Assembly (NCBI GenBank): GCA_016699935.1
Contig: CP064992.1
Location: forward strand, 390,001 to 422,000
Origin: Candidatus Saccharimonadota bacterium
Lineage (GTDB): Bacteria; Patescibacteriota; Saccharimonadia; Saccharimonadales; UBA4665
Length of the DNA stretch: 32,000 nt
Direction: 5' to 3'
Shown here: positions 6,069-25,415 of the stretch, piece after piece
Numbering within the stretch: position 1 is the stretch's first letter
Layout of the letters: each line of letters opens with the position of its first letter
Program-made: the position numbers and the translations under genes
Notes under the pieces: model-generated
The model's database searches: none
Seen by the model: only the letters and a program-made list of their open reading frames with translations
Told to the model about the DNA's origin: nothing

Positions 6069-6072
6069 CGTG

Positions 6073-6102
6073 TTATGCAGTGGCACGTAAGAGGGGTATA
6101 CT
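6073..6102 (+). promoter_or_regulatory. Candidate sigma70-like promoter for the phosphohexomutase gene
   Basis: TTATGC (6073-6078), 18-nt spacer, TATACT (6097-6102). Followed by a strong SD AGAGGAGG at 6117-6124 and ATG at 6128. Motif match only. Confidence 0.3.
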
Positions 6103-6127
6103 GGAAGACACAGTATAGAGGAGGCTC

Positions 6128-7474
6128 ATGGGCAATTTAGCGAACATTTTTAAGGCATACGACATACGTGGTCGGGTCGGAACAGAGCTGAGCGAGGATT
6201 TGGTAGAACGAGTTGGGCAGAGTTTTGCACAGTGGCTACCATCTGATGGTTCTGTGGTGGTCGGCCATGACATGCGACCAGATTCACGGCAGCTTGCCGA
6301 TGCATTGGCTCGTGGAATTACGCTTGCGGGGCGCGATGTCATTGACATTGGTTTGGTGACATCAGATATGGCAGTGTTTGGGGTAGAGCACTTTCAAGCC
6401 GCTGGTGCGGCCATCATCACTGCCAGTCATAACCCTGGCGAATATAACGGTATAAAATTGTTCGACAGTACGCCGAAGACCATTGGGCTTGACCAGGGGC
6501 TCGACGTAGTGCGAGATGGCGCGCTGAACCAGACTCGCCCCGAAGTAGCTGCGTCAACTGGCAGCGTGACTCACGAAGATTTGATAGAAGCCTGGGTCGA
6601 TTACTGCCTAGGCTTTGTTGACACCTCACGGTTTAAGCCAATCAATATCGCCATCGACTGCGGCAATGGCATGGCTGGCGTAGTGCTCGAAAAACTACTT
6701 GCTCGTCTGCCCTTTACGGTAGAGCGGCTTTATTTTGAGCCGGACGGCACATTTCCGAACCATGAAGCTAACCCTCAGAAGCTTGAGACACTCAAAGACT
6801 TGCAGGCCGCGGTTCAAAAAAAGGGTTGTTACCTCGGGGTTGCCTTTGATGGTGACGGCGACCGTATGGCAATGATAGATGAAACTGGTCGGCCAATTAC
6901 CGGCAGTGAAATGATGTCGCTGTTAGCTAGCAAATACCTCCAGACTCCCGAACCATCGTTCGTCTATGAGGTTCGGACGTCGCGTGCAGTCGTATCGCGC
7001 CTGGAATCACAGGGTTACAAGGGAGTCCGCTCCAAGGCGGGTCGCAGTAACATTGGTGAGGTTATGCGCGCCAACAACGCTGTGTTTGGCGGTGAAACCA
7101 CCGGGCACTTCTTTTTCAAAGATTACTGGTCGAACGACTCGGGCATGTTGAGCATGCTCATTGCTCTCGAACAGGTTTTCACCCAGGATCGTCCGTTATC
7201 AGAGGTGGTTTCAACCTCGCACACGACAAACCCAATGATTCCGGAAACGAACTTTGAGGTCGCTGACCCGAAAGGGATGCTTCAAAAAGTCAGCGAAGCG
7301 TTCGGCAAATACGAGCAAGATTGGCTGGATGGTCTGAGCGTCACCCTGCCCGACGGCTGGTTCAACTTGCGCGCCAGCAACACCGAACCCGTCATGCGCC
7401 TGAATGCCGAAGCCATGACACAAGCCGATTTGGACGGATTAGTAAAATGGGTTACTGAAATTATCACTAATTGA
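6128..7474 (+). CDS. Phosphohexomutase (phosphomannomutase/phosphoglucomutase family; GlmM-like activity not excluded)
   Basis: Intact 448-aa ORF. Phosphoserine loop TASHNPGEYNGIK, Mg site FDGDGDR, sugar loop GGETTGH. Confidence 0.9.
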   Translation: MGNLANIFKAYDIRGRVGTELSEDLVERVGQSFAQWLPSDGSVVVGHDMRPDSRQLADALARGITLAGRDVIDIGLVTSDMAVFGVEHFQAAGAAIITASHNPGEYNGIKLFDSTPKTIGLDQGLDVVRDGALNQTRPEVAASTGSVTHEDLIEAWVDYCLGFVDTSRFKPINIAIDCGNGMAGVVLEKLLARLPFTVERLYFEPDGTFPNHEANPQKLETLKDLQAAVQKKGCYLGVAFDGDGDRMAMIDETGRPITGSEMMSLLASKYLQTPEPSFVYEVRTSRAVVSRLESQGYKGVRSKAGRSNIGEVMRANNAVFGGETTGHFFFKDYWSNDSGMLSMLIALEQVFTQDRPLSEVVSTSHTTNPMIPETNFEVADPKGMLQKVSEAFGKYEQDWLDGLSVTLPDGWFNLRASNTEPVMRLNAEAMTQADLDGLVKWVTEIITN

Positions 7475-7493
7475 GAATGTAGAGGCATATTTC

Positions 7494-8240
7494 ATGGCAA
7501 AATCAGGCGAAAAATCTTATTTTAAGGAAATAGGGGAAGCTGGCATCAACTATACGCTTGCGAAGCCATTTTCAGACCCCCCAAACTTAGGTTCGCTCTT
7601 ACATGATATTGCGGCGGTTTTTAGTCTATTGCCCCCTCCCCCAGCTCGTATTCTGGATTTGGGGTGTGGTTCTGGCTGGACTAGTGCCTTTTTTGCACGT
7701 GCTGGGTACGATGTAGTCGGAGTTGACATATCTCCTGAAGCCGTTGAAGCAGCATCAAAACATTACTTAGAGCTGCCTAATGTGAGCTTTGTAGTTGGTG
7801 ACTACGATACCCTGGCATATTCAGGGGAGTTTGACGCCGCAGTTTTTTTTGATTCATTACATCATGCAGAAGATGAAGTACTGGCTTTAAAGGCAGCTTT
7901 TGTGGCACTACGGCCAGGAGGAATTCTTGTAGCCTGCGAGCCTGGAGTTGGACATAGCAAAACAGCAAAGTCAATTGACGCAATGGAACGATACGGAGTC
8001 AATGAACGCGACATGCCACCAAAATTACTTCGGATCCAAATGCGCAAAGCTGGATTTAGCACAATTAAAACATATGCTTACCCGGCAATCTCTCATAGGG
8101 CTTTGTATTTCAATCGAACTGGCTGGATTGGAAGACTGAGAAACATTGCGATGGTACGGGCGTTAACCGTGGGGATGCTCGCAACTATACTCCGTCGAAA
8201 CCATGGGATTGTAGTGGCGCATAGAGAAGCTGATACGTAA
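7494..8240 (+). CDS. Class I SAM-dependent methyltransferase
   Basis: Intact 248-aa ORF. SAM motif I ILDLGCGSGW, followed by VVGVDIS and DAAVFFDSLHH. Confidence 0.8.
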   Translation: MAKSGEKSYFKEIGEAGINYTLAKPFSDPPNLGSLLHDIAAVFSLLPPPPARILDLGCGSGWTSAFFARAGYDVVGVDISPEAVEAASKHYLELPNVSFVVGDYDTLAYSGEFDAAVFFDSLHHAEDEVLALKAAFVALRPGGILVACEPGVGHSKTAKSIDAMERYGVNERDMPPKLLRIQMRKAGFSTIKTYAYPAISHRALYFNRTGWIGRLRNIAMVRALTVGMLATILRRNHGIVVAHREADT

Positions 8241-8921: not shown

Positions 8922-10754
8922 ATGAAAAGCTATTGATATCAGCTTCACTAATAGCCGTTGTAGTTGCATCAAATACGTTACTATTCACTTCTCATTCCCA
9001 AGCCGTTACGGCTAGCGATTGGAAGGCAGGTCTAATTATTGATGACGGCGTTTTTACTAATGCCAATGATATGTCTGTTGCAGATATCCAATCATTTTTG
9101 AATAAAAAGTGCCCAATTGTGATACTAACGGCACACAACCAGCAAGTGAATATGGTCGGTCGGATATAACTCATGCACAATATGCTGCACTTAAGGTTGG
9201 GCGGCACCGCCTTATGTGTGTCTACGCAACTTTTATGAAGTTCCAAAACCGCGCCTAGCCCAGGCATACCCGCAAATAACTATAGTGGCTCAATTCCTGT
9301 AGGTGCCATCAGCGCAGCGCAAATGATATGATGCTGCACAACAATACCGTATTAACCCCAAAGTTTTACTAGTTAAGCTTGGCACTGAATCTCACGGTCC
9401 CCTTACTTCCGATTCATGGCCGCTCAGTTGGCAATATACCTTTGCTATGGGAGCACACTGCCCAGATAGTGGCCCGGGTGGTAGCGCAAACTGTGACACG
9501 AACTATGCTGGTTTCTCGATTCAAATGCGCGAGGCGGCTTCACTCTTGCGCTGGTATCTCGATGGAATGACACAGTCATGGTGGCAATACAGAAAGCCCT
9601 ACCAGGTCAATAGTATCTTGTGGAAGCCGGTTGTATCTGGATGTGGATCCGGAAACGTTTACATTGAGTCGAAAGCAACGGCCGCACTGTATACGTACAC
9701 CCCATACCAACCAAATCAAGCGGCACTTAATAATATGTATGGCACGGGCGATGGTTGTAGCTCGTACGGCAACCGTAACTTCTGGCGTGTTTACAGCGAC
9801 TGGTTCGGCTCAACACGATATGGTAATTTAGTACGTACTAACGGTGGCGGTGTATACCTCATAGAAAATGGCTACAAGAGAGCCTTCCCGAGCGAAATTG
9901 TGTTCCTTAGTTATGCATATAACTGGTCTGGTGTCACCGTCATCAGCCCATCGGAGATGTCATCTATGCCCGATGGCGCAGTGGTACCATACAATATCCA
10001 CTTTAGAGATGGGCACCTCGTTAAATCTCAGTCTGGCGGTGTGTACGTAATAGACAATGGGTTCAAAAGGCCCTTCCCTAACGAGGGGTCTTCTACAGCT
10101 ATGGATATGGCTGGTCAGACGCTCAAGTTATTAGCAACGCTGAATTGAGTCTCATACCCGATGGTTCAGTGATGGCGTACAATGTCCACCTCAGAGATGG
10201 TCGTCTTATCAAATCGTCAAGTGGTGGAGTCTACCTAATTGAAAATGGCCTAAGGAGAGCATTTCCAAGTGAAACCGTATTCCTGAGCTACTCATACAAA
10301 TGGTCTGATGTACTAAATATTAGTTCCTCTGAGCTTTCACTCATACCTGATGGCGCTTATGACATACAATACCCATTTTAAAGATGGACGACATGTCAAA
10401 AATTCGTCGGGCGGTGTATACCAACTTGAAAACGGTGTTAAGCGAGCCTTCCCAAATGAGCTGACATTCCTCAGCTACTCATACAAATGGTCTGACGTAC
10501 TACCCATTAGCAACGCTGAATTGAATCTCATACCCGATGGTTCAGTGATGGGCTATAACGTCCATTTTAGAGATGGATATCTTGTCGCCTTCCCATCTGG
10601 CGGTATGTACGTAATAGACAATGGGTTCAAAAGGCCCTTCCCTAACGAGGGTGTATTCTTCAGCTATGGGTATAAGTTCTTAGACGCCCTGGTTATTAGC
10701 AAGTCTGAGCTGAATCTTATCCCTGATGGGGTGGCAATGCCCCCAAAAATCTAG
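8922..10754 (+). pseudogene. Secreted ~610-aa protein: signal peptide, conserved Cys-containing N-terminal domain (weakly glycan-hydrolase-like), five C-terminal tandem repeats; at least 7 frame breaks
   Basis: The stitched translation reads MK(K)LLISASLIAVVVASNTLLFTSHSQA|VTASDWKAGLIIDDGVFTNANDMSVADIQSFLNKKVPNCDTNGTQPASEYGRSDITHAQYAALKGWAAPPYVCLRNFYEVPKPRPSPGIPANNYSGSIPVGAISAAQMI.DAAQQYRINPKVLLVKLGTESHGPL...AMGAHCPDSGPGGSANCDTNYAGFSIQMREAA.... Breaks are at 8925-8928 (A run), 9104-9108 (A run), ~9193, ~9254, ~9328, 10085-10088 (G run) and ~10354. Confidence 0.75.
9825..10754 (+). repeat. Five tandem ~189-nt (63-aa) coding repeats
   Basis: Repeat unit: xLVKSxSGGVY[LV]I[ED]NGxKRxFPxExVFxSYxYxWSDVxxISxxELxLIPDGxVMxYNxHFRDG. 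Unit starts are near 9825, 10014, 10203, 10391 and 10580. Confidence 0.85.
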
Positions 10755-10783
10755 GTGCACTCCTTTTTCATGCAAATCAGTGT

Positions 10784-11159
10784 CTATTCTTTATACGGGA
10801 GAACAATTTTCTTACCATCTTTTCGCATGACAGATATATCCCATCCCTCTTTACGCTCTCTCGACTCGCCAAATAATACGCCCCACTTTGCTTTTGGAAA
10901 GTAAAGGTCCATCAACTTCTGGTGACTCTTTGACTGAAAATCCATCAAAGTCCGAATTTGAAAACCTGCTGTACTCTGATTCAATCAATTGGCGTTCAAT
11001 ATCTGTAAGCTCATTTTTCTTGAAGCTTAAGCCAAATAACACTGGCCTGATGCGGCCACCCTTAATCAAAATCTTCGTTTCAACTTCTGCAAAATAGACT
11101 TCGTAAAATTTTCCTAAATCATTCTCATGGTAATATCTTAAAATATTTTTCAGCATCAA
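10784..11159 (-). pseudogene. Hypothetical ~125-aa protein, last gene of the island operon, one frame break
   Basis: Pieces 10851-11159 (MMLKNILRYYHENDLGKFYEVYFAEVETKILIKGG...) and 10784-10984 (...HQKLMDLYFPKAKWGVLFGESRERKEGWDISVMRKDGKKIVLPYKE) overlap in adjacent frames. I recognise no domain. Confidence 0.45.
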
Positions 11160-11164
11160 CGATG

Positions 11165-11982
11165 CTATCTTTTAAAACCTCGCTCCTTGTAGAGTGTATA
11201 GTTGCTCCAGGCATGCTGAAGATCTGCTTTGTCGTCCATGAGGTATTCTTTAAATCTTATATAGTCAATATTACTTAAAATTTCGCAGCGCAGATCATCA
11301 CCAGCTTCGAGACAAAGCTTTTGTTTTTGGATACTGTCTTGCCCATCATGTATACGGTAGATAACCAGGTTCTTTTCTAGCAGCATGAACTTATATTTAT
11401 GTAGGAGCTCAGTCTGTACCATAAATCATAGTCTTGGGTTACGGGCAATGCCGGATTAAATCCCCACTTTCAATTAAAGCTATCTTTGGTATCAACAGTG
11501 CGCAACCATTTATTCCTACATCCGCGGAAGTCGCTAGAAATATATCAAAGTATTTAAATGTTTTCTTATTAATTAGCCCTGCTTTTTTATTCCACTAGGG
11601 TATAAGCTACGGGCATTACTGACAACAATCGTGTCATTTGCTCGCGATGATACTATCAGTTTTATTTGCTCTTCAATCTTTCTTTTTCATAAAGGTCATC
11701 ATGTGACAACCACGAAAAATACTCACCAGTCATTTTCTGGGTGCCAAAATTCAGCGTACTCGCTACGCCGCCATTCTCTTTATTGTAGTATCTGATCTTA
11801 CTTCCGTACGACTTGGCAATTTTCTCTGTTGCACCACCATCAGTAGAACCGTCATTAACAACAATGGTCTCAACATTTTTATATGTCTGGGCAAGAGCAC
11901 TATCTATGGCTTCTCTGAGGTAGTTAGAGCCATTGTAGACGGGGATTACGATGGAGACTTTAGGGGTATCCTCTGCCTTCAT
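11165..11982 (-). pseudogene. GT2-family glycosyltransferase, about 3 frame breaks
   Basis: N-terminal piece 11662-11982: [43 protein letters not shown]...WLSHDD (GT-A fold, DxD-type). The middle region contains QDYDLWYRL in another frame. C-terminal piece 11165-11422: LVIYRIHDGQDS. Confidence 0.75.
11876..11964. repeat. ~89-nt block, ~93% identical to 16027-16115 (paralogous GT2 5' regions)
   Basis: Hand alignment: tttttatatgtctgGgcaagagcactatctatggcttctCtGaggtagttagagccattgtagacGgggattacGatggagactttAgg versus the copy at 16027. 6 mismatches. Confidence 0.85.
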
Positions 11983-11983
11983 G

Positions 11984-13360
11984 TCAGATCTTCAGTTTGC
12001 TTCGAATTATTCGGAATGACCTAATAACTATTTTACTACCGGTCTTTGACAAACCTTCGTATTCAATATTGGCCTTGAGTCTTCTGGGAATCGTTGCGGC
12101 TTTAGACAGTAACAGAAGTGTCCCATTAGTATTTTTGTGCTGATTACCTTCGTTGATAGACGACGAAAAAGATTTCGTTCAGTTCTCTTGAGAGCACACT
12201 CGAGAATAGCTGTTGATTCTGAATCGAATAACCTAGCTCACTATCAAGTGTTTTATGAAGCTCATTTTTGTCACTTATCTCTATCAGTGAATTGATAAGA
12301 TAGCGCCACTTGTTACCTATATGGTTTGAGTCATATGACTCAACCTTCTTCTTTGCATTTTCACTTAGTTTTTTATATAGTCTATTGTCATTTAAGATAT
12401 CACTGACTCTTAGCGCCATCGAAGGAATGTCACCCTGTTCGGTAATGTAGCCATTTTCTCCATTGGTTATGATATCCTCAATGCCTGGTATGTAATTACA
12501 GACAGACGGCACCCCAAAGCACGCCGCTTCATTTAATACCATACCAAAACCTTCGCTATTTGATGTAAGCAATAAAACTCTTGCTTCAACATAATAATCT
12601 TGCACATTGCTTACTTCGCCCACAAAGCTCAGGCAGTCAGATGGTATGGCGAAATTATTGATTAAATCATTTACCGTAGCATTGTCGTTCGATCTTATGG
12701 GGACATCGTTATCATACTTCCCGACCAATACTAACTTTGCATCGGGTACATCTTTGAGAACTAATGAGAAACACTCTAGTATCCTGTCAATTCTCTTCAC
12801 ATAATCATTGAATCTACCAACGCAAATAATTGTCTTGCTCCTAGATGCCTTGTCAACCTTTTTCGAGACTTCAAAGTTGTTTGGGTTGCCAATAACGTAG
12901 TTATTCTGAACATACATTCCGCAGAGTGCAGCGTTAAAATTGTTTGGCCATACAATAGCATCACAGTTCTCGTAGGCGTTCAACCTTTTCTCAACTACAT
13001 CATAGTGCGCAGGGCTTTTATAAGGGTAAAAATAGTACTCGTGATTTGAGGCTATTGTTTTAATCTTTGTACCTACACAAAGATCGTAAAAGTTTTGTTG
13101 TTTGTCGAACAAATTGATACATCCAATCACTACATCAACATCTAAGAGTAATGCATAGGCCAAAATTAACGAATCGAAGTGCTCTACGAAGAGATCGTCA
13201 GCTATTTTTATACTCGTAACATACTCAGGAACATCAATATAACTCTTTCTCTCATCATATGGTGTAATTAAAAATATTTCATAATCATTCTTTTAATTCT
13301 CTAAAAAGAGTGGACATTACTCTTCCATGCCCCTGTCAACCAATGTGCCGAGCTAAACAT
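11984..13360 (-). pseudogene. GT4-family glycosyltransferase; intact core ORF 12144-13163, frame breaks at both ends
   Basis: Core contains LLLTSNSEGFGMVLNEAACFGVPSV (GT4 EX7E region). The N-terminus stitches from ATG 13360 (MFSSAH..VDRGMEEVMSTLFRELKKNDYEIFLITPYDE). The C-terminal tail stitches to ...[33 protein letters not shown], with TGA at 11984-11986, one nt before the next ATG (11982). Confidence 0.7.
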
Positions 13361-13373
13361 TATCTTCTTTTTG

Positions 13374-14326
13374 CTAGTTGGTTTTGCAAACTTTGAAATT
13401 AGCGTACCCGCTCCAGTAGCCATCTGGTGCTCTGGGTAAACAAGATAAATCGTCAAGCAAAATCATTTTTGCAACATCGTGACCATTCTGGACTATCGAC
13501 CCATATATAATTTTTTCTATTAGAAATGCGGCAGTTCTCGGAATCCAGCATCAAAAATTTGCTTATAAGAAGCGACCGCATTTTCCCTGCTGCCAAAGTA
13601 ACTAGTAATATCCTCATAGCTTAAACTATTTATAACCTCAGAATGAAGAAAATCATAATCATGCTCTGCCGTCGGACCAATTAACGATTCCTGCTCAATA
13701 TGTGAACCGTAGTTTAATAGCGATTGACTGACAACTCTGAAATTTGCACCAGCAGATATTAACCTGCTAAGCATCACATAGTCTTGATATGGCGGAGTGA
13801 ACTATCAAATTGCCCACTATTCTTAAACATTTCTGTTGGAATAAGCATCGCGCAAGTGTTTAGACGCATCTCTGTAGCGAATGCTATGTAACAACCCGGA
13901 TGCTGCTCCAGCCTAGTGTCTACAGTGCAGTCATGTACTGTTCGGCCATTTTGGTTAACGATTGCCCAATTTGAAACTATTATCTTACTGCTAGCTTTAG
14001 TGACTCGTTTGACCAGTTGATCTCACTCTATCCGGCTCGTAAGTATCACCATTCGACAGCCATGAAAAATATCGGCCAGTTGACTTCTCGACACCATAAT
14101 TAAGCGCTTCGGCTACGCTACTATTTGGTCTTGTAAGAAACGTTATCCTATCACAGCTATATGACTTAACAATTTGATCAGCTACTCCACGGCTAGTGAG
14201 TTCGTTGCCTACTACAATAATTTCGATGTTATCATACGTTTGAGCTATGACGCTGTCTAGGGTATCTTTGAGATAATTCGAGTTCTCGTGGACGGGGATG
14301 ATAATAGAAACTCTAAGTTTCATCAC
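13374..14326 (-). pseudogene. GT2-family glycosyltransferase, several frame breaks
   Basis: N-terminal piece 13997-14326: KLRVSIIIPVHENSNYLKDTLDSVIAQTYDNIEIIVVGNE...WLSNGD. Piece 13520-13777 contains HDYDF. The stitched C-terminus ...IIYGSIVQNGHDVAKMILLDDLSCLPRAPDGYWSGYANFKVCKTN ends at TAG 13374-13376. Confidence 0.65.
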
Positions 14327-14329
14327 TTA

Positions 14330-16130
14330 TCAATCTCCTTCTTGCTTCTGACTGCCTTTATTGTTGCTATACCCCGCGATAAAGTTTGCGGGTAGCACGA
14401 AATGGAATACTACTTTTACTTTTGCTTTTATTACTGAGTCTTTGGTTGGGGTTAGTTGAATTGCTTCAGGCTGAACGGAAACTACCGGTCCTTCATATAA
14501 CAGGTGGTTATGCTCTTTTCACGTATGTCACTATTTATCTCAAAGAAGTAATTACATAGTACGGCTATATCCTGGTCGTACTGTGAGTAATAATCATCGT
14601 TCAGTAGGTACGTAATCAAGTTTTTTATTCCGACTATCAGTTTATTGCTGTCTTGTGCGTGAGTTGTGTTGTCAACATTAACAACCGTCAGTGGCTCATT
14701 TATTAGCAGGATTTCTGACCATTTGGCAATCTCAAGCCAAAAACGAGTGTCCTCGCCAATTCTAATGCTTTCATCAAAATAGATGTTATTATCAAGCAAG
14801 AACTTCTTACGAACGATTACTGTCGGGGTTGCAATTGTACAGTTGCTTATTATCCGCGGTATGACAATGCCTGTTAGCCCCCGGATCGCACTTCACGATT
14901 TGTTTATCTCTCTCGCGCCTTGTATATGAAGTATAGCTAATGGTGGGGTTATGTTTCGCCATCATAGCCAGCTGTTTCTCGATTTTGTCTGGCATAAACT
15001 CATCATCAGAGTCCAGGAATGCAATATACTCACCGGTTGAATGTTCGATACCGTGATTACGCGCCTTCTGCTGGGCCTGAGTTGGCTTTCAGGGTGACAA
15101 GTTTAATGTTTTTATGCGCTTCTGTTAATTTCTTAATTTTACTTATATTATCTGTGGAGTAATCATCGACTAGCACAATTTCGATATCAGTATATGTTTG
15201 GTTTAGTGCAGAATTAATTGCATTGATGGTCTTATCCACTCTGTTATAAAAAGGTATGACCACCGATACTTTGGGATTAAAAGACAGTTGCTCAAGCTCT
15301 TTTTTGAGTTCTGAAAACTTATCCTGGGCATATGCTAGAGCACCGGTATATGGAGTCGAGTTAAGAAAATTGACCATTTCAAAATAGAAGTTATTTAGTG
15401 TGCCTTCATATTTTATCTTCTCGTTTTTTGGTAAGCTCTTTATCATGTCAATCCACAGTTCGTCGCCCTCTGCGACTACCCTCGGAGAGACCTGCGTGTC
15501 CTGTTCTGAATGAAGCCTCGTGATAGATACTACGTCTTCCATGTGAACGAAATCATACTTAGCCTCAATCCTGCGCCAATAATCATAGTCTTGAGTACAC
15601 CGAAGTTTCTCATCAAACGCACCCATTTCGTCTAAGATGGATTTGGGAATCAAAATAGTAATACCATTAACGCAGCCCCGAAGTAGTGAGTACCTGCTCT
15701 TCCTCGTCAACATTTCATGATTATGAACCACCGGTGTAATTTGCTGACCTATGAGAATTGAATAATTCGCATATAGAAATACTTTTTTAAAGTTCAGCTT
15801 CGCTAAGAAATTAATCTGTTTTTCAATCTTATCCTGATAGTATAAGTCATCGTGACTTAGCCAACAAAAATACTCACCTGACATTTTTTTAATTCCAAGA
15901 TTGATTGCAGTGGCGACGCCACCATTTTCTTTGGCGTAGTAGCTTATTTTATTACCATATGACTTGGCAATTTTTTCAGTTGCCCCATCATCGTTCGAAC
16001 CATCGTTCACAACGATTATTTCAATGTTTTTATATGTCTGAGCAAGAGCACTATCTATGGCTTCTTTTAGGTAGTTAGAGCCATTGTAGACTGGGATTAC
16101 TATGGAGACTTTGGGATTTCCAGCGTTCAT
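14330..16130 (-). pseudogene. Two-domain (GT2-GT2) glycosyltransferase, first domain intact, second domain frame-broken
   Basis: ORF 15057-16187 holds domain 1 ([43 protein letters not shown]...WLSHDD...QDYDYW) and the start of domain 2 (PKVSVVIPFYNRVDKTINAINSALNQTYTDIEIVLVDDYSTD). Pieces 14807-14995 and 14482-14799 continue domain 2 (EYIAFLDSDDEF in a shifted frame, then GEDTRFW). The likely start is the MNAGN ATG at 16130. The stitched stop is TGA 14330-14332. Confidence 0.8.
16027..16115. repeat. Partner copy of the 11876-11964 block
   Basis: See 11876-11964. It lies in the 5' region of the two-domain GT2 gene. Confidence 0.85.
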
Positions 16131-17080
16131 CTTTTTCGCCTTTTTACCGTATGCCCCAATTCTGCCAACTTCGAGGAAAAGCGCCATCTTTTGCTACTAT
16201 AGATTTCTCTCAGCTCTTTATTTAATGCCGATACTATTTGCTCAAGAGCGCCAATCTCTCATTTTACTGGCATACTCATTTTTGAGTACTTCATATTTGG
16301 CATCAATAATCTTTAGCTTTGAAGCCCTTTGATCTTGGATATCTAAAATATTTTTACAAAATTAAAGTTATTATCCCTTAACTCGTCAAACACCTCTTCG
16401 ACAGTCACTGCCCTTAGGGGAAATGTGAAATAATCACTAACTTTTGGCATATTATCTTTACTGGCAATGCAGATAATACTATTAATATGTATGCTTTTGG
16501 GAATCTTGTCGTAAGTTATGCCTTCAAGATCCTCATAGAAGAACTCAACATTTTTATACTTTGGGAAATCTTTTTCAGTAATACCTGTAAGTAAATGGTA
16601 TATATTACCTGGGGCTTCATTGTAGGGGACGTTGATACACAGCCTGTTCGTAAACTTATCTTCTTTTACGATAGCTAATCCATTTTTAATATGCTCTAGA
16701 ACATGTCTAGTCACAATATAAGAGTAGTCTTCCTTCTTTTTCAAGAATTTAATCGCATCGCAGATTTCATAGTCTATTTTTTTACTGTAATAGTTTCTTT
16801 TCGCCCACTCTAATGATTCCTCGGAAACATCGATGCTCTTTACAATATTTGTTTGTTCTATGTTAGCATAAGTGAACGAAGCATACCCTGTTCCAAAACC
16901 TAAATCCAATATAGATATATCTTTAAGATTAAGGGAAGCTACATCCTTCTTGATTATCTGCTTAAAAAAATGATGGGAGCTAAAATGCCTCACTAGTTCA
17001 CAATCATCGTGTGATAAAAAAGGGACCAATCTTTCTCCGTCATTAAAGATAGAATCCACATCAATATTTTCTTGACCCAT
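16127..17080 (-). pseudogene. Class I SAM-dependent methyltransferase with a ~70-aa C-terminal coiled-coil/basic tail; tail reachable only through two frame changes
   Basis: ORF 16343-17098 carries motif I ILDLGFGTGY. The likely start is ATG 17080 (TAATG overlap with the epimerase stop). After the TAG at 16343, the adjacent frame reads (K)NILDIQDQRASKLKIIDAKYEVLKNEYASK. The original frame then resumes as EIGALEQIVSALNKELREIYSSKRWRFSSKLAELGHTVKRRKR. It ends in a TGA (16127-16129) that overlaps the next ATG (16128-16130). Confidence 0.65.
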
Positions 17081-18183
17081 TAGACCCCCTTCTTCCATAC
17101 TGTCCGATTAATATACCCTGTGTAGCTCATGATTATCCTCACGCCCTTTTGTGAGACATTATCGACATCGTAGTCCTTTACTATAGGCATTCGAGTAGAT
17201 GTCACGATCTTAATTGAATCTAGGATAGTATCCTTATCGAGGCCAGTCATTATGAGCGTACCCTCGTCCATGCCCTCTGGTCGTTCGTGCGCCTGACGCA
17301 CGGTAATAGCTGGGAACCCTAACAGTGACGATTCCTCGGTAATGGTGCCACTGTCAGAGATAACACAGTAGGCATTCTGCTGGAGCTTAATATAATCCGC
17401 AAATCCAAGAGGTTTCATTGGCTGCACTAGTTCGTGCAGCTTGATGCCCTTGGCGTCAATAAGCTTCTGCGTCCTCGGGTGAACCGAGAAAATGACCGGC
17501 ATCTTATAGGTTTCGCAGATTGCGCTGATAGATTCAATAAGGTCAGTGAAGTTTTTCGCTATCCACATTCTCTTCACGGTGAGCGCTAAGTAAAAATATC
17601 CTTTCGGGCTTAAACCTAGCTGATCTAGCACATTACTATCGTCAATCGATTGTTTATGCTTGGATAGTACTTCTTTCATACTAGAACCAACTTTAATAAC
17701 TGTTTCTGGACGAATACCCTCTGCGACCAAATATCGCCTGGCATGTTCGGTTAGTGTCATATTAATATCACTTAAGTGATCCACCACCTTTCGGTTGAGC
17801 TCCTCGGGGACTCTTTGGTCAAAGCATCTATTGCCCGCCTCCATATGAAATACAGGTATTTTGTTTCTTTTTGCAGAAATGGATGCTAGGCAAGAATTTG
17901 TGTCGCCATACAAAAGTACGGCGTCTGGCCTATGTTCTTTAAATATCTTATCTGACTCAATAATCACGTTGCCTATTGTTTCAGCTGCATCTTTACCTGC
18001 GGCATTCATAAATATGTCTGGCTTTCTAATGCCCATACCATCGAAAAAGATTTCGTTCAGTTCATAGTCATAGTTCTGACCGGTGTGAACGAGCACGTGC
18101 TCGGTGTATATATCGAGTTCTGGGATGACGCATGCTAACTTGATAATCTCTGGCCTTGTACCAACTATTGTCATGACTTTCAT
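17080..18183 (-). CDS. UDP-N-acetylglucosamine 2-epimerase family (non-hydrolysing; FnlC/CapG/WbvD-like); ORF open but contains a locally scrambled 12-codon stretch
   Basis: 367-aa ORF: MKVMTIVGTRPEIIKL...VLLYGDTNS...ISDSGTITEESSLLGFPAITVRQAHERPEG. The family HREEN motif is present only in an alternative frame between 17552 and 17596 (see finding). Confidence 0.85.
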   Translation of the reverse strand: MKVMTIVGTRPEIIKLACVIPELDIYTEHVLVHTGQNYDYELNEIFFDGMGIRKPDIFMNAAGKDAAETIGNVIIESDKIFKEHRPDAVLLYGDTNSCLASISAKRNKIPVFHMEAGNRCFDQRVPEELNRKVVDHLSDINMTLTEHARRYLVAEGIRPETVIKVGSSMKEVLSKHKQSIDDSNVLDQLGLSPKGYFYLALTVKRMWIAKNFTDLIESISAICETYKMPVIFSVHPRTQKLIDAKGIKLHELVQPMKPLGFADYIKLQQNAYCVISDSGTITEESSLLGFPAITVRQAHERPEGMDEGTLIMTGLDKDTILDSIKIVTSTRMPIVKDYDVDNVSQKGVRIIMSYTGYINRTVWKKGV

Positions 18184-19030
18184 TTTGTTACCCTCTGACT
18201 TTCGCTATACAGGGACTCGTGTGCGGTAACCCAGTCAGCCATTTCTTCCACCATCTGAGCATAGCTCGGTATTTCAAAATCAAAATCTGTTGTCCTCATC
18301 AAGCTTTTATTGCTTACGTAATCACTTTTACGATTGATGATAATGTCTTTATTGAAACTCTCTTTGAACAAAGAAATAAGGCTAAATTTATCTATCGTTT
18401 CATTGTTCACCGCATGCCGGAGGCCGGTGAGATTATTGACGATTGCTTTTTCCATACATTTTGCAAATTGGAGTGTGGTCACCCCTGTCCAGATAACTTT
18501 GTCGAATCCATTGGTTTCTTTTTCTTGGTTCATAAACCACTGGAACAGACCAATTCCATTTTGGTTTACATCTGGGCCAACTATTGACGTACGGAGCGTT
18601 ACGCTCGACTCATTATTCGTTTCACCGAGGCCCTTAGACCGTCCATAAAAGTCATTTGCATTTCTAAAGCTGTTTTCGGTGTACTCGCCCGCCTTGCCGT
18701 CAAAGACGCAGTCGGTTGAAACATGCACAAATTTTGCGCCTTTAGCTCTACATATGCCATCGACATGGTGCGGCAGATAGCTATTGATGAGGACCGCCAG
18801 TGGCTTGTTGTCTTCTGCCACCTTGTTCAATATACCAATACAGTTAATGACGGCGTCCGGTTTAAAATCCTCAACAAATGCTTCAATATCGTTCATATTT
18901 TTGTGGCATCAAATATGTAATCGGCGCCATCGAACCGAGACGTCCCTCGTACGTCATGACCCTGTTCCTGGAAATACAAACGTACAATGTGGCCAAGCAT
19001 TCCATCAGAACCTAGTACAAGTAATCTCAT
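18180..19030 (-). pseudogene. RmlD-like NAD(P)-dependent sugar-nucleotide 4-reductase (WbvR/FnlB-role candidate), one frame break
   Basis: ATG 19030 gives MRLLVLGSDGMLGHIVRLYFQEQGHDVRGTSR (Rossmann GxxGxxG), then a stop. ORF 18180-18896 continues with DAVINCIG...VHVSTDCVFDG...Y..SK. ATGA overlaps at both ends (19027-19030 and 18180-18183). Confidence 0.75.
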
Positions 19031-20022
19031 GTTTCGACCTCCCCATTTTTATTAGGAGCTCGATTGTCCCCTTTTCGTCCAATCGTTCGGTAACATCGGA
19101 GCTATACGGTCGGTATTCTTTACTTCACCGCTACCCTCCGGGTAGAATGTATTGTAGTTCATGTCGCGGTTATCCATGGGGATTCTGAAGAAATTACCCA
19201 TGTCTTCGCTCTTTGAAACTTCTTCACTCGTGACCAACACCTCATGCGCTTTTCGCCATGCCTAGTGCCAATAATGACCGTTTTTGCATTTGACCCTTTA
19301 TATTTCTTTACTGCGGCCGCTAAGGTAGCGATGGTTGCTGCTGGCGCCTTCTGCACGAAAAAGTCACCCTGTTTGCCATGCTGAAATGCAAAATAACCAA
19401 ATCTACTGCGTCTGCTAGTGTCATCATAAATCGAGTCATGTTAGGGTCGGTTATGGTTAGTGGCTTGCCTTCTGAGATAAGTTTATAAAAAGAGGTATCA
19501 CTGAGCCACGTGAACCCATAACGTTTCCGTATCTCGTTAGGCAAATAGTCGTCTTTGCGCCCACGCCAAGCTGGCGAGCCTTGGCGACGATGATTTTCTC
19601 CATCATGGCTTTGCTGGTGCCCATCGCATTTATGGGGTAGGCCGCTTTGTCGGTACTGAGGCAAATTATCTTTTTACACCATGGTTTATGGCGGATGTGA
19701 GGACATTGTCTGTACCGATCACATTCGTCTTTACCGCTTCGAGTGGAAAGAATTCACAAGATGGTACTTGCTTTAGAGCGGCCGCATGAAATATATAATC
19801 AACGCCTTTCATCACAACATCAACACTGCTCATGTCTCGCACGTCGCCGATGTAGAATTTGAGCTTCGGGTTGTTATAATGCTTTCGCATGTCATCTTGC
19901 TTTTTCTCATCGCGCGAAAAGATTCGGATTTCACTAACGTCAGTATGTAAAAATCCTTTGAGCACTTCATTACCAAAAGAGCCCGTGCCACCCGTAATTA
20001 GTAATACTTTGTCTCTAAACAT
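19027..20022 (-). pseudogene. UDP-N-acetylglucosamine 4,6-dehydratase/5-epimerase (FnlA/CapE/WbjB/WbvB family), about 3-4 frame breaks
   Basis: N-terminal piece 19666-20022, MFRDKVLLITGGTGSFGNEVLKGFLHTDVSEIRIFSRDEKKQDDMRKHYNNPKLKFYIGDVRD...HAAALKQVPSCEFFPLEAVKTNVIGTDNVL, is near-consensus for this family. Pieces 19320-19664, 19159-19356 and 19052-19240 continue it. SD GAGGAG lies upstream. Confidence 0.85.
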
Positions 20023-20050
20023 ACACTCTCCTCGCAGTATGCATTATGTT

Positions 20051-21233
20051 TCAATTACCGCACTCTTCACCCTCTTTCGTACTTGTACTCAAGCCTCGAG
20101 GGGCCCCCAACGTCCACTTTCCATCATCGATTACTCTGAACGCAAATGCCATCTCTTTTATATCAATCACTCCTCCTGTTTTACTCATCACCGCTGCCGA
20201 TGCCGAATATCTCCCGGGTCCAATGTCTAACTTTATAGTACAGGTAAAATCAGCATGAGTCAGCCCTGTGCAATCGTCGAGTTACTACCAAATACATAGA
20301 CACCATCACTCCGTGTGATGCCAGTCCCCATTATGTGCTTTGGTCGGGTCGAATTTTCCTTCCAAGATACGTGAAGTGATAATTCTTCGGATGGCAGGTA
20401 AACCTCTTTCACTGGGAGTTTGATAATAAACTGTGAGTCCTTGGGTTTCTTAGTGTCCTTGGCATTTTCAGTGCAGTTTCTTGAGCGTCGTCTTTCTTTG
20501 TGTTCATGTCCGAATACTGCTCGGCGACACTATCCACAGAGCCTATGTGCACTATCTTTCCATCATCTATGAGCATTGCTCTGGTACAAAGATTTCGTAC
20601 GGTGCTCATATCGTGCGTCACGAGTACTACCGTTTGCTTGGTTCTCCTGTATTCCTCAAATATTCTGAGGCACTTTTGTTGGAACGCTTCGTCGCCGACC
20701 GCGAGGACCTCGTCGAAGATGAGTATGTCGTTTTTGGCTTTGATGGCTATGGAAAATGCAAGCCGCACCTGCATGCCAGAAGAATAGTTCTTGAGCTTCT
20801 TATCCATATGCTCGTGGAGTTCAGCAAAATCTACAATTTCATCGTACATTCCGTCTACGACCTTACGCGGATAACCAAGCAGTGAGGCGCTTAGGTACAC
20901 ATTGTCTTTCCCGCTGAGTTCGGGGTTGAACCCAACACCAAGTTCTATAAAAGGAGTAAGATTCCCATTGATTTCGACCGCACCACTATCTGGCGCATAT
21001 ACACCAGCGAGTATTTTTAGCAGCGTGCTTTTGCCGCTACCATTTCGGCCAACTATACCAAAGAACTCGCCTTTCTTAACCTCAAAGTCAATTCCATCCA
21101 ACACTTTTTGGCGCTGTTTTATGTGCTTTTTGCCAGCATTTACCAACAGCTGTTTTATGGACGTGTTCTTACTTTCTGCAATCTCAAAATTTGTATGTAG
21201 ATTATGTACTTTAACTGCTATATCGTCAGTCAT
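20051..21233 (-). pseudogene. wzt: Polysaccharide ABC exporter ATP-binding protein with C-terminal carbohydrate-binding-like domain (Wzt type), 2-3 frame breaks in the C-terminal third
   Basis: ORF 20409-21233 holds Walker A GRNGSGKST, signature YSSGMQVRL and Walker B ILIFDE. Downstream frames read ENAKDTKKPKDSQFIIKLPVKEVYLPSEELSLHVSWKENSTRPKHIMGTGITRSDGVYVFGSNSTIAQG, then LTHADFTCTIKLDIGPGRYSASAAVMSKTGGVIDIKEMAFAFRVIDDGK. The stitched length is ~390 aa. Confidence 0.78.
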
Positions 21234-22025
21234 CTATATATTCTCCGCAAACAATCTTGCTTGACTCTTGAAGTAGATACTCGACAGCACTACCGATATG
21301 GCAACTATAGCAATGGGGATCAGGCCGAACCATAACGGGGCTATCTGCCACACATTAATAGCATCTGGAGTAACTAGCATATACCGCGCATCCTGAATAA
21401 TTTGCGTCATGGGATTAAGGAAAAAGTACTGGCGATACTGTTCTCCAACATACGTTAGTGGGTAGAGAATTGGGGTTGCATAAAATGCAGCCTGTAGGCC
21501 AACTTCCCAGATGTATGTAATATCTCGGAACTTTACATACAGTGCCGACAAGAAGAATGCCAAAGCTGTTGAAAAATAAACAATTCCGCAAATGGAAGTG
21601 GCAACAGTAGCCAAAGCCAAGTTGGACTGACTCCATTGATAAATGCAAAAAGAATAACTACTACTAGGTTGATTCCCAGATTGATTAGTGCTGACGCAGA
21701 AGAGCTCAAAACCGTCAGGTAGCGAGGAATTGCTATTTTTCTAATCAAATCGCCCTTACCCACAACCGCACTCATACCAATAATCGTTGACTCCGCAAAG
21801 AAGTTCCAAATCACGATTCCCAGAAGAAGGTAAACGGGATAGTGTGGTACGCCCTTGCCTATCTTAAAAATGTAAGTAAAAACAACGTACAGGATCACAA
21901 ATAGAAATAGCGGGCGGAGCACCGACCACAGATATCCAAGTGCTGAGCTCTGGTATCTTACCTTAAAATCAGCACTAAACCATTTCTCTCAATATTGAGC
22001 GATTTTTTATCGACAGATATCTCAT
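21234..22025 (-). pseudogene. wzm: Polysaccharide ABC exporter permease (ABC-2 type, Wzm/TagG-like), at least 2 frame breaks
   Basis: ATG 22025 gives MRYLSIKNRSILREMV, then a shift into SADFKVRYQSSALGYLWSVLRPLFLFVILYVVF... (piece 21533-21922), then piece 21234-21620. Multi-TM throughout. It abuts the wzt start (21233). Confidence 0.75.
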
Positions 22026-22036
22026 ATGCTCAAGTG

Positions 22037-22045
22037 ATTATACCA
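22037..22045 (-). promoter_or_regulatory. Candidate extended -10 element (TGGTATAAT) for the island operon
   Basis: The reverse complement of 22037-22045 is TGGTATAAT, 11 nt upstream of the wzm ATG (22025). No good -35. Motif match only. Confidence 0.3.
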
Positions 22046-22122
22046 CTGATTAGTCATAACGTATTAGTGGCCGCCCCACACGCTATTTGCTATCTCCTCC
22101 CCATGGGTCATACTATGTACTG

Positions 22123-23240
22123 ATGAAACGAGTCGCACTCATCAGAAATTCATACTCCTACGACTTCGGTGGGGCGGAAATTTATCCCATTAACTTAGCG
22201 AAGCTGTTGCCCGCCCATGGCTACAAACCAATAGTGCTTTCTGCAAACAAAAACACTAACCTATGCCAAAGATGCGCACGTAGAAACTGTTCGTTCGCCC
22301 TGGTGGTCATTCCAAAATTTTAGTGGAACGGGGCTGCTGCTATTCCCTCTCTACGTTTTCTGGCAGCTTTTTGTGACCTTGTGGTACGTTGTATTCTTTT
22401 TGTGGAAGCACATTGATGTAGTCCACGCCCAGAGCCGAGATGATTTCATCACTGCCACCCTTGCAGCTAAAATCCTGGGCAAGAAGGTGGTTTGGACCGA
22501 TCACGCAGATCTGAAATACATTTATATGCACCATAAAAAATGGTACAAGAACCCTGTTGAAAGTTAGTTTACCTAGCGGGTAAATTGGCCGACCACATCA
22601 CAATAGAGAGTCGTAGCGAGAAGAAGCTAATTGAAGAGTCTTTGGGCGGCAATTGCCTAACAACTACTTGGTTATCCATCTTGGCGTAGTAGACAAATAC
22701 AAGCCCGCTGCGCGAGACCGCGACACAGTAGTTTTGGTTTCCACCTCCAGACTAGTCAAGGCTAAGGGAATTGGAGAGATGATTGAGGCATTCAAATTAG
22801 TTGATGATGCGAATGCTAAATTAAAGATTTGCGGGGATGGCCCTGACGCTGCTTATTTTAGATCCTTAGCCAGCGGGATTAGTAACATTGAATTTCTAGG
22901 CCACGTGGAAGATGTAGTTCAAATTCTGCGCGAGTCAGACATACTAGTACACCCGAGCTATCATGAAGGTTTTGGACTCTCTTTAGTGGAGGCGGAGATG
23001 TGTGGTCTGCCCATAATCGCCTGCAACGTAGGAAGCATACCCGAGATTGTTAAAGATGGTACGAGTGGTATTTTAGTGGAGCCAAAAAACGTTGATGATC
23101 TAGCCAAAGCCATGGCTCTTCTAATAAAAAGTCACAAACTGAGAATCGACATGGGCCAAGCTGGACGCAAAATATTTCTGGATAACTTCCAGTTCGACAG
23201 AATCGTTCAAGAAAAGTTCCTTCCTATTTACTATTTGTAA
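22123..23240 (+). pseudogene. GT4-family glycosyltransferase, three frame breaks
   Basis: MKRVALIRNSYSYDFGGAEIYPINLAKLL... continues after breaks near 22250 (A run), ~22558 and ~22645 into piece 22653-23240, which contains VHPSYHEGFGLSLVEAEMCGLPIIACNVGSIPEIV. All three breaks behave as 1-nt deletions. Confidence 0.8.
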
Positions 23241-23258
23241 TTTTTATGTTACAATAAA

Positions 23259-24074
23259 ATGATGCCACCTCTCCGTTCTACCCCTGACTATTCACCCAAA
23301 AGGGTATTAGTTCACAACGCCCTTGAGGAGGCCTGGACTGCATACCTGCACCCTACCGAGCCAACCGAAGACATCGACCTGGTATGGGCATTATCTGCTC
23401 CCGGTACCGTAAAAACCCCGGCACAGTTTGAGCAAGAACCGGAAAACCCCTACAATGGCGAGTCTTTCAATGTTGGAATTGTTAATCACGCAGTCAGTGT
23501 TGTATTAAAGGTAACAGCGCTTCGCACCGGGAAGACAGTGGAAGAAGTCACAAAAGACGATATTATTAATCGCGGCCCCAAGCTGTTGTATAACGGTGAA
23601 TCGCTCAAAACCAAGGGAACGCGTTTTTCGAGTCAAAACGAAGACTTTTTAGAATTATGCAGGCACGTAGATTTTCCGATTCCTTTTCAAAACATAATCA
23701 TTGGTGAGATAGCTGAAGCTCACACACCTGCTCAGGTAAAACAGCTCGCTGAATTACTGCGGCGGGACGATGGTGTTCCACCTCCACGTAAGGTAGCCGT
23801 AGTCTGTGGTATACCCCACATGGTACGCACGGGTCGGTATTTGCAGCATTTTCGAACACTATTCTCTGATGGGACCAGCTTTGTACCTTCAGTCATTCCC
23901 CAGGGCAGCAAAGAAAAAATGAGCAAATTAACAGCCCTAGAGGTTAGAAAAGCGCTGTTTTACGCAGCTGTCGGCCATCTAGACCCAAGCTCTATCTTCT
24001 TCCCAAATGGCGTTCCTGACGCTCGTCCTCGCAATGTTCTACGCGACCAACGCACTACTAGACAGCACAAGTAG
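23259..24074 (+). CDS. Hypothetical protein, tentatively DUF218/YdcF-like (ElyC/SanA superfamily)
   Basis: Intact 271-aa ORF. The functional call rests on weak resemblance only: AEAHTPAQVKQLAELL plus KVAVVCGIPHMVRTGRYL resemble the DUF218 NT-ENA / VTS-HM-RA pattern. Confidence 0.5.
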   Translation: MMPPLRSTPDYSPKRVLVHNALEEAWTAYLHPTEPTEDIDLVWALSAPGTVKTPAQFEQEPENPYNGESFNVGIVNHAVSVVLKVTALRTGKTVEEVTKDDIINRGPKLLYNGESLKTKGTRFSSQNEDFLELCRHVDFPIPFQNIIIGEIAEAHTPAQVKQLAELLRRDDGVPPPRKVAVVCGIPHMVRTGRYLQHFRTLFSDGTSFVPSVIPQGSKEKMSKLTALEVRKALFYAAVGHLDPSSIFFPNGVPDARPRNVLRDQRTTRQHK

Positions 24075-24183
24075 GCCAGATTAAACATAATTAACTCAGT
24101 GTTTAACCAGAGCCGGACTAACTAGTTGGCGCTATTATCAACAATTCAAGAAGCTCTACGCTGAGGCGAGGAGAGAACTCAAG

Positions 24184-24192
24184 TGCTATAAT
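24184..24192 (+). promoter_or_regulatory. Candidate extended -10 element (TGCTATAAT) upstream of the GT4 pair
   Basis: TG at 24184-24185 and TATAAT at 24187-24192, 66 nt upstream of ATG 24258. Motif match only. Confidence 0.3.
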
Positions 24193-24257
24193 ACGATCTG
24201 TCGATTAGCATATTGGTTGTTCACTGGTCTATACGTGATGCGGACATATTTGTTTCT

Positions 24258-25415
24258 ATGAAAAAACTAGCAGTATTAAAATCCTTTTTGATGCCGGGCC
24301 GTTGGTCAATGGCAACAAGACTGGTGTTGGCAGAACGACCGAGGGGTTAGTTTTGGCGCTCGCTAGTGAGTTTCCCGAACAAATTGAATTGGTCGGTCAC
24401 TATTTTGATTTCATGAACCGCAAGAAGAATATTGAAGTCCCTGTAGCTTCAAATATTCGCTACAGACGCACAGTATTTATACCAGGTAAGGTCTTCAATA
24501 TGCTGAGGCGACTTGGCGTTTGGATACCTTTCGAGCTACTCGCAAAAGAACGAGGAGACTTTCATATTTTCCCTAGCTTTATTGGCTGGCCTAGTCTATT
24601 CCGCACACCTAGCGCACCCTTTATACACGACATAACATATATTGACTACCCAGAATATGTTAATGGCCCAGCTCAATTTGATTTAAAAACCATCATACCC
24701 AGAACAGTTCGCAGAGCGGCTTTTATTATCACTAATTCCGAGTCTTCTAAACAAGGAATATTACGCGAGTACCCTACGGCAAGGAAGCCTATCATTGTCG
24801 AACATTTGCCCGCTGTAGGCGCTGTGTTTATTTCTAAAAAGAAGCTGCTACGTGCTTACAAAGGCTGGGAGTCACGGGCAAATACCTGTTGTTTTTCGGA
24901 ACTTTGGAGCCACGCAAAAACCTGGTTGGGCTTATCGACGCATACCAAAAGCTAAAACCCATCGTACGCAACCAATACGCTCTGGTAATTGGTGGTGGTA
25001 AAGGCTGGAAGGATGATGAAATTATAAGTAGCCTCAACCGGCTCAGGGCGTCTGGCGCAACAATCTTTCAGACGGGATTTGTCAGCGACAAAGAGCGAGC
25101 AGCGCTATATATGGGCGCAACATTGTATGTGATGCCCTCACATTATGAAGGTTTTGGCATGCAACTTCTTGAGGGTATGACCTATGGTGTTCCCATGCTC
25201 GTGAGTGACATACCTGTGCTGCGCGAGGTCGCAGGAGATGCCGCAGCTTACTGCGGGACAGACCCCTCATCTATCGCTGTCGCACTTGAAAATCTGCTCA
25301 GTACTCCTGACCGGCGCGAAAAACTAGTCCAGGCGGGCAAAAAGCGGTTGCACAGTTTTTCTTGGAAAATGTTGCACGTGACATATACGCTAACATATTG
25401 GAGCACGTTCAATGA
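24258..25415 (+). pseudogene. GT4-family glycosyltransferase, three frame breaks
   Basis: MKKLAVLK then a shift (~24285, T run) into ILFDAGPLVNGNKTGVGRTTEGL (piece 24302-24955). A second shift (~24880) leads into LFFGTLEPRKNL...MPSHYEGFGMQLLEGMTYGVPMLVSD. A third shift (~25364) leads into ENVARDIYANILEHVQ. The stop TGA 25413-25415 overlaps the next ATG. Confidence 0.8.

Follow-up and report, generated by a model that had tools for sequence, protein, structure and literature searches.

A predicted methyltransferase with a helical, basic tail as a candidate chain-terminating cap enzyme beside Wzm/Wzt in a Saccharibacteria glycan cluster

Capping of the S-layer glycan of Geobacillus stearothermophilus, a Gram-positive glycan dependent on an ABC transporter, is carried out by the methyltransferase domain of WsaE, a methyl-rhamnosyltransferase in which that domain is fused to rhamnosyltransferase domains. 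Across the capped systems that have been characterised the terminator always lies in a coiled-coil protein and is accompanied by a Wzt with a carbohydrate-binding module (CBM), a strategy already recognised as widespread (PMC11231755). For the WbdD proteins of E. coli O9a and Klebsiella O3 the coiled coil has been shown experimentally to act as a ruler (PMC3482155, PMC11231755); the WbdD of E. coli O8 is a simple methyltransferase, and its C-terminal region recruits the polymerase (PMC3482155). The present analysis concerns a methyltransferase gene on the minus strand of a 32,000-nucleotide (nt) stretch of a Candidatus Saccharimonadota genome (assembly GCA_016699935.1, contig CP064992.1, positions 390,001 to 422,000), referred to here as the window; the gene appears to stop short of a helical tail and lies in a glycan cluster with wzm and wzt. 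By analogy with the pairing of a coiled-coil terminator with a Wzt CBM in the characterised systems, its product is on balance probably a WbdD(O8)-like methyl-capping chain terminator with a short ruler, acting in a glycan pathway of Saccharibacteria.

The open reading frame (ORF) of the methyltransferase matches Pfam Methyltransf_25, 31, 23 and 11, all above their cut-offs, and its start codon at 17080 is preceded by GAAGGGGG; an earlier ATG at 17098, upstream of it, overlaps the end of fnlC. Past the TAG that closes the ORF, translation of the window in a shifted frame and then in the original frame adds ~72 residues, and the new reading is closed by a TGA that shares bases with the start codon of the next gene, encoding a dual glycosyltransferase (GT2-GT2); the four-nucleotide ATGA overlap is also present in L001, the syntenic locus that carries the closest homologue. 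An earlier, sequence-only reading of this DNA had proposed exactly this layout, and its positions were found to be accurate. At the first frameshift site L001 has GTAAAAAAT, with six consecutive A residues (A6), where the window has GTAAAAAT (A5), and a frameshift-aware alignment puts a one-base deletion in the gene at 16356. At the second zone the exact base lost or gained is not fixable from sequence alone. Once stitched, the gene is predicted to encode one protein of ~317 amino acids (aa).

The stitched 317-aa query retrieves uninterrupted homologues of 309-335 aa covering 95-100% of it. About 18 uninterrupted homologues carry the tail, which is found in every member of an 18-sequence alignment, and for this reason the state that had been described as cryptic is put down to two frameshifts. 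That it is part of the methyltransferase, as first supposed, is borne out by these intact proteins; its hidden state, on the other hand, is most probably an artefact of assembly and is nothing special to this gene, as 34 frameshifts are spread over 11 genes of the cluster. The tails of the homologues match the window segment outside the ORF with E = 1e-10 to 1e-12 (tblastn). P0002 is 71% identical to the stitched protein overall and identical at 39 of 82 positions of the tail, with the first tail segment aligning without gaps to its NILEILDIRTQQ; P0006, from a Candidatus Saccharibacteria metagenome-assembled genome (MAG), is 55% identical. Within the 18-sequence alignment the catalytic motifs LDLGFGTGY and TRHVLEHI are invariant, as are S296 and W299 of the tail (18/18).

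A structure model of the restored protein, made with AlphaFold2 on the 18-sequence alignment (mean predicted local distance difference test, pLDDT, 83.6), has a Rossmann-type core of high pLDDT at residues 1-235, a long helix at 239-294 (~56 residues), a break at S295-S296 and a second helix at 297-316. The protein is thus predicted to have three parts: a class I S-adenosylmethionine (SAM) methyltransferase, a helix of ~56 residues and a basic helix that starts at the invariant S-x-x-W-[KR]. Among orthologues the stretch from N238 to S296 is 49 to 73 residues long, and hydrophobic residues occupy 56-81% of the a/d positions of the helix as against 22-40% elsewhere; the z score for 3.5-residue periodicity ranges from 0.4 to 3.9, and all matches of the tails to coiled-coil families in Pfam are sub-threshold. 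In the window the second tail segment has clean a/d heptads (I276-L279-V283-L286-L290-I293). In the orthologues the net charge of the final 18-26 residues lies between +4 and +9. Of the coiled coil claimed by the sequence-only reading, the long helix followed by a short basic one is upheld by the model, but the heptad periodicity is moderate in the homologues and weak in the window protein. The claim that there is no kinase domain agrees with the Pfam scan.

Both a PDB sequence search with the family profile and a Foldseek search with the model returned generic class I methyltransferases and no specific neighbour. These comprised the bacterial Hen1 RNA 2'-O-methyltransferase domain, phosphoethanolamine methyltransferases, ChlM and spermidine synthases, with Hen1 domains as the top structural neighbours. 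It was also observed that H126-x-x-E129-H130 and H162 (stitched numbering; window about 16,590-16,705) are invariant; these residues might form a Hen1-like metal site for methylation of a sugar hydroxyl.

It is in the tail that the likeness to a known terminator is found. The O8 comparator was WbdD of E. coli IAI1 (WP_000535779.1, 425 aa), a serotype O8 strain with the gene order wzm-wzt-wbdD-wbdA; this protein has a class I methyltransferase and a helical region followed by LHNSRSWRITQPLRWL, and after its coiled coil it has NSRSWRITQPLR. The motif reads S-K-R-W-R-F-S-S-K-L in the window, S-T-S-W-K-I-T-K-P-L-R in P0006 and S-R-S-W-R-I-T-Q-P-L-R in O8 WbdD. P0006 (TSTSWKITKPLRSL) aligns with WbdD best over the tail region, at 31.6 bits and a pairwise E of 2e-5, and the hidden Markov model of the family tail scores 9.1 bits on WbdD at the correct position, a score reached by none of 5000 composition-matched shuffles. 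A blastn search for the O9a wbdD gene that used the O8 C-terminal DNA found O8-type genes only.

The gene context is consistent with this likeness. An exporter is recognised in the cluster from ABC2_membrane, ABC_tran and TagH/Wzt-type NCBIfam matches and from 78% identity to the intact Wzm/Wzt proteins of L001; the window Wzt itself shares 78% identity with the Wzt of that locus, a protein of 387 aa. After stitching it matches Wzt_C (PF14524) with 34.2 bits against a cut-off of 30.4, so that the binding module first proposed for this neighbour was indeed detected. The genes run in the order wzm, wzt, fnlA, fnlB, fnlC, methyltransferase with tail and multi-domain glycosyltransferases, where fnlABC (17083..20022) are UDP-L-FucNAc-type precursor genes according to NCBIfam matches to FnlA and a wecB-type 2-epimerase. 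This order is kept in all five of the related loci looked up (L001, L002, L006, L007 and L008), four of which, all except L002, have Wzt_C; over seven related loci the domain is present in six (L001, L006, L007, L008, L009 and L010). The combination of methyltransferase, helix and tail near wzm/wzt, for which the sequence-only reading had suggested a search, is therefore found in related loci, and its guess of a host from the candidate phyla radiation (CPR) was also right: the window GlmS shares 82-86% identity with proteins that carry the name Candidatus Saccharibacteria or Saccharimonadales. The comparative context fits a pair of terminator and polymerase.

More distant relatives show the same catalytic head in other combinations. 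An exhaustive profile search of 1.84 billion representatives gave 78 clusters at E<=1e-30, and many of the members examined pair the head with coiled coils of ~30 to 300 residues; two members of the family, P0087 and P0091, are fused to glycosyltransferase domains (GT2 or GT4-like). Distant relatives of 500-540 aa, with 40-45% identity in the head, have the same methyltransferase joined to another domain that resembles a methyltransferase, to a coiled coil of repetitive sequence and to a C-terminal helix that is basic. Two of these distant relatives, P0027 and P0035, one of them from a Roseobacter MAG, are encoded directly after wzm-wzt(CBM). In a scan of GTDB genomes the single species representative with a relative was the Lac Pavin Saccharibacteria MAG, which gives no picture of how far the family has spread.

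The tail motif is not confined to the methyltransferase. Glycosyltransferases that end in a short coiled coil and an S-x-x-W-[RK] tail were observed in L007 (12390-14219), L008 (9952-12375) and L002 (11102-13321), and the tails of glycosyltransferases in the related clusters read IYSSRRWRYSSKAAK, IRNSKRWQII and FLLWRISKPIRL. In the window the GT2-GT2 protein has SIPFRATRKL near its C-terminus (14411..14382), which resembles the motif. The motif may act as a docking or address tag that is common to the entire assembly complex. A relaxed regular expression for it also matches an unrelated repeat in a surface protein and is not specific enough alone, and a tail-motif profile run against 5.8 billion proteins found only five tiny ORFs with SWR[IV]TAPLR, which are uninformative on domain context. 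The database entries P0315-P0319, outside the window, are small ORFs, possibly fragmentary calls, in which S-x-SWR[IV]TAPLR closes a stretch of coiled coil; the WbdD(O8) motif thus recurs elsewhere, often in short gene calls.

If the protein is a terminator, its C-terminal motif would anchor it at the membrane, or else to the glycosyltransferase complex whose genes follow directly downstream, and the helix would keep the methyltransferase head several nanometres off. A lipid-linked glycan with L-FucNAc-type sugars would be O-methylated at its non-reducing end once it was long enough to reach the head; the methyl cap would then halt extension and form the epitope read by the binding module of Wzt, licensing export through Wzm/Wzt.

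Several results weigh against this proposal. By hhalign the catalytic domain matches that of O8 WbdD with a probability of 9.5%, over the SAM motif only; BLASTP against O8 WbdD gave E = 0.006 over 87 aa, and WbdD is absent both from the PDB sequence matches and from the top 50 Foldseek matches. The stitched helix of the window shows weak single-register periodicity (z = 0.6), with the residues at the junction uncertain. Amphipathicity of the terminal helix was not significant in a hydrophobic-moment test (median z 0.8, window -0.2), and therefore it is called a basic docking helix, the description as an amphipathic membrane helix having been dropped. Other methyltransferases could supply a cap, namely the product of 7494-8240 in the window and the Methyltransf_24 genes in L002 and L008. 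In L002, from the Lac Pavin Saccharibacteria MAG, the tailed methyltransferase is present and the Wzt (L002:5151-5927, 258 aa) is without Wzt_C; that the protein is retained there, together with the several methyltransferases per cluster and the occurrence of the same helix and S-x-x-W-[RK] tail on glycosyltransferases of L007, L008 and L002, with the related SIPFRATRKL on the GT2-GT2 protein, would be explained if the enzyme methylated internal repeat residues, or a primer or adaptor sugar, and terminated nothing. The helix and basic motif would then be a tether only, and the presence of the tail on glycosyltransferases does make it look like a general docking tag rather than a ruler specific to terminators. 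Such internal or primer methylation is nevertheless judged unlikely: in every experimentally resolved capped system the terminator is on a coiled-coil protein (PMC11231755), Wzt_C is present in the window as well as in most related loci, the window cluster holds no other non-glycosyltransferase modifying enzyme between wzm and the last glycosyltransferase gene, and P0027 and P0035 occupy the position of wbdD directly after the wzt with CBM.

It is also conceivable that the enzyme acts before polymerisation, on a nucleotide-sugar precursor such as an intermediate of the UDP-L-FucNAc pathway. Within the close family the methyltransferase gene always directly follows fnlC, and among the more distant loci L010 (the Roseobacter MAG) has FnlA-like and 2-epimerase genes and L009 a 2-epimerase gene, which speaks for such a role. 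The protein did not match curated NCBIfam models of nucleotide-sugar methyltransferases, the matches being to generic class I methyltransferases with NCBIfam scores far below the cut-offs; further, the long helix with its basic docking tail, the tight coupling to a polymerase-type glycosyltransferase gene and the glycosyltransferase fusions P0087 and P0091 suggest that it works at an assembly complex on the membrane and not on precursors in solution. Methylation of the precursor is for these reasons considered very improbable, and the capping terminator is the reading carried forward here.

Whether the full-length protein is made at all depends on the nature of the interruptions. A frameshift-aware dynamic programme, in which the intact proteins of L001 served as the reference and were aligned to the window, located at least 34 frameshifts, spread over 11 genes from 11,987 to 26,492, and 0 in-frame stops. 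Counted modulo three, the events comprise ~24 deletions and 10 insertions, and a homopolymer of at least 4 bases lies within 8 nt of 23 of the 34, where 11.4 would be expected (P<0.0005). Since insertions and deletions without nonsense changes, enrichment at homopolymers and a bias to deletion are together the signature of long-read consensus error, the interruptions in the methyltransferase gene are likely to be length errors at homopolymers and short repeats in an uncorrected long-read assembly, rather than real mutations. Were they real mutations, this strain would have pseudogenes in place of the methyltransferase gene and of most others in the glycan cluster, and the full-length protein would not be made. 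The uneven density speaks for decay and against artefact: the surface-repeat protein (8933-10781) is also split by frameshifts, yet ~6.7 kb of core genes (GlmS, GlmM, the WbaP-like gene, the 248-aa methyltransferase, YidC and RnpA) have none. So does the lower guanine plus cytosine (GC) content of the cluster, 42.6% (10,801-26,500) against 51.0% over 1-8240, as often in variable accessory loci; the figure for 26,501-32,000 is 48.7%, and the lower value of the cluster fits a variable or horizontally exchanged locus. Neutral decay, however, should also have yielded nonsense substitutions, of which there are none; nor would it account for sites that are homopolymer-enriched and deletion-biased, and khpB/jag, a housekeeping gene of the rnpA-yidC-jag operon, is split as well (KH domain 30378-30689, R3H domain 30223-30456). 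Real decay is accordingly held to be somewhat unlikely. The unevenness could have arisen because polishing takes effect only where reads or references match well, which would clean conserved genes and leave strain-specific, variable loci uncorrected.

Programmed frameshifting or phase variation was rejected as an explanation, because interruptions of the same type occur in almost all genes of the cluster. Metagenome contigs were scanned for an exact pattern spanning the A5/A6 site; there were 0 matches, and hence no independent assembly of the strain in that scan. The FnlC ORF is open throughout and still contains a pair of shifts 34 nt apart (17557-17591), each beside a 5-base homopolymer; as the pair is compensating, a short stretch of FnlC is probably mistranslated in a seemingly intact ORF. 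It follows that in its variable loci the gene calls of this contig should not be relied upon, and "truncated" proteins there need to be stitched before they are interpreted.

The features of the window are collected in Table 1. The intact, tail-less methyltransferase at 7494-8240 is 47.5% identical to a methyltransferase encoded directly upstream of wzm in L002 and is an alternative candidate for methylation of the glycan. In L001, L002, L006 and L007 the cluster has the repeat-rich protein as a conserved neighbour, and in L002, L006 and L007 a partner gene of 174-190 aa lies beside it. Between 26.5 and 28.1 kb the minus strand lacks long ORFs; a GDSL-lipase-like fragment (28083-28454) and minus-strand ORFs without a Pfam match (28781-29722 and 29641-29967) have the appearance of remnants of at least one larger gene that frameshifts have broken up. 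A megablast search of E. coli genomes with the cluster gave no match, and scans of the window for tRNA genes and Rfam families found nothing.

Table 1. Features of the window, with the number of frameshifts per gene relative to the intact proteins of L001
Feature	Position	Strand	Frameshifts	Remarks
WbaP-like gene	418-1866			intact
GlmS	3070-4905			intact
GlmM	6128-7474			intact
Second class I methyltransferase	7494-8240	(+)		248 aa; tail-less, intact
Repeat-rich surface protein	8933-10781	(+)		no Pfam match; ~63-aa internal repeats NGxKRxFPN...FxSYxYK
GT4-containing glycosyltransferase	11987..13681	(-)	5	582-aa type; ~565-580 aa stitched; basic C-terminal helix
Three further GT4 genes			3, 5 and 1	
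GT2-GT2 dual glycosyltransferase	14341..16130	(-)	5	~600 aa stitched; candidate polymerase
ATGA overlap	16127..16130	(-)		tail TGA 16129..16127 overlaps GT2-GT2 ATG 16130..16128
Tail segment 2, original frame	16258..16130	(-)		EIGALEQIVSALNKELREIYSSKRWRFSSKLAELGHTVKRRKR; holds the S296-x-x-W299 motif (16195..16166) and the basic end
Second frameshift zone	16255..16265	(-)		A4 run then GAGAGA; reading returns to original frame
Tail segment 1, frame shifted by one base	16352..16261	(-)		NILDIQDQRASKLKIIDAKYEVLKNEYASK; N-terminal half of long helix
Methyltransferase ORF stop	16345..16343	(-)		TAG
First frameshift site	16351..16355	(-)		A5 run; one added A restores FNFVKNILDIQ
Methyltransferase, catalytic part as assembled	16346..17080	(-)	2 (whole gene)	245 aa from the ATG at 17080, which is proximal to the ribosome-binding site
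FnlC	18183..17083	(-)	2 (compensating)	NCBIfam wecB-type 2-epimerase match in fnl group
FnlB	19030..18183	(-)	1	weak rmlD-family matches
FnlA	20022..19041	(-)	5	NCBIfam FnlA match
Wzt ATPase with C-terminal carbohydrate-binding module	20076..21233	(-)	3	ABC_tran and Wzt_C after stitching
Wzm permease	21237..22025	(-)	2	ABC2_membrane
YidC	30692-31648			intact
RnpA	31650-31988			intact

What is new in this locus is the host lineage within the CPR, the small size of the protein and a catalytic head that is not that of WbdD; the cap-and-check logic itself is already established. In the literature searched, no paper was found that links Saccharibacteria to Wzt. Taken as a whole, the stronger proposal can be made only tentatively and is more doubtful than the role of terminator alone: the protein would represent a new family of chain-terminating O-methyltransferases with a head unrelated to that of WbdD, a portable module of helix plus S-x-x-W-[RK] common to polymerising glycosyltransferases, a minimal terminator-polymerase machine, an unusually short ruler in its helix of 49-73 residues, and the first case of cap-and-check length control in the CPR. 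If the reading as a capping terminator is correct, Saccharibacteria, tiny epibionts whose envelopes are poorly known, give one of their surface glycans a defined length by the same cap-and-proofread strategy as is known from enterobacterial O antigens, and the idea of a molecular ruler could be tested on a small model, the 317-aa protein. The tail motif may also serve to find terminators and their polymerase partners in unannotated clusters.

Among the known systems the closest in layout is the WbdD of E. coli O8, shared in type with Klebsiella pneumoniae O5. Both it and the window protein have a methyltransferase, a helical region (a coiled coil in WbdD, a predicted helix with some heptad character here) and a motif of the S-x-S-W-R-I-T-x-P-L-R type, both are without a kinase domain, and both are encoded beside wzm and a wzt with CBM, directly before a polymerising glycosyltransferase, which in the window is a candidate one. 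The position of wbdD between wzt and that glycosyltransferase is respected in the window, where the order is wzt, fnlABC, methyltransferase and GT2-GT2. They differ in that the catalytic domains share the generic SAM-binding region only, that O8 WbdD continues for ~105 residues past the motif, in an extended region that binds the membrane and recruits the polymerase, as compared with 18-21 here (up to 26 among orthologues), that its spacer is roughly 85 aa by eye against ~56 aa here, and that the window gene follows fnlABC, not wzt. The hosts differ too, as Saccharibacteria have no lipopolysaccharide. The WbdD-type logic that had been suggested for this locus is therefore sustained by the tail motif shared with O8 WbdD and by the gene context, but does not extend to the catalytic domain, which is no relative of WbdD beyond the SAM fold. 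Judged from its sequence, the window protein is O8-type WbdD-like in layout and tail motif, while its catalytic domain places it outside the WbdD family.

With the kinase-methyltransferase WbdD of E. coli O9a and Klebsiella O3 the likeness is one of logic, in the succession of a catalytic head, a coiled coil and a polymerase-recruiting C-terminus and in recognition of the cap by the CBM of Wzt (PMC3482155, PMC11231755). That protein has a kinase, which the window protein lacks, and the window helix is much shorter; the solved structures of WbdD are not among the PDB hits of the window protein by either sequence or fold. In Klebsiella pneumoniae O7, ORF6 is a single polypeptide that joins a methyltransferase-kinase to a coiled coil and a pair of GT2 modules (PMC11231755), which by description is the module order of the methyltransferase-helix gene and the overlapping GT2-GT2 gene of the window. 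The window has neither the kinase-like domain nor the internal CBM and its products are separate polypeptides, but by this analogy the O7 ORF6 resembles a fusion of the overlapping pair of genes described here.

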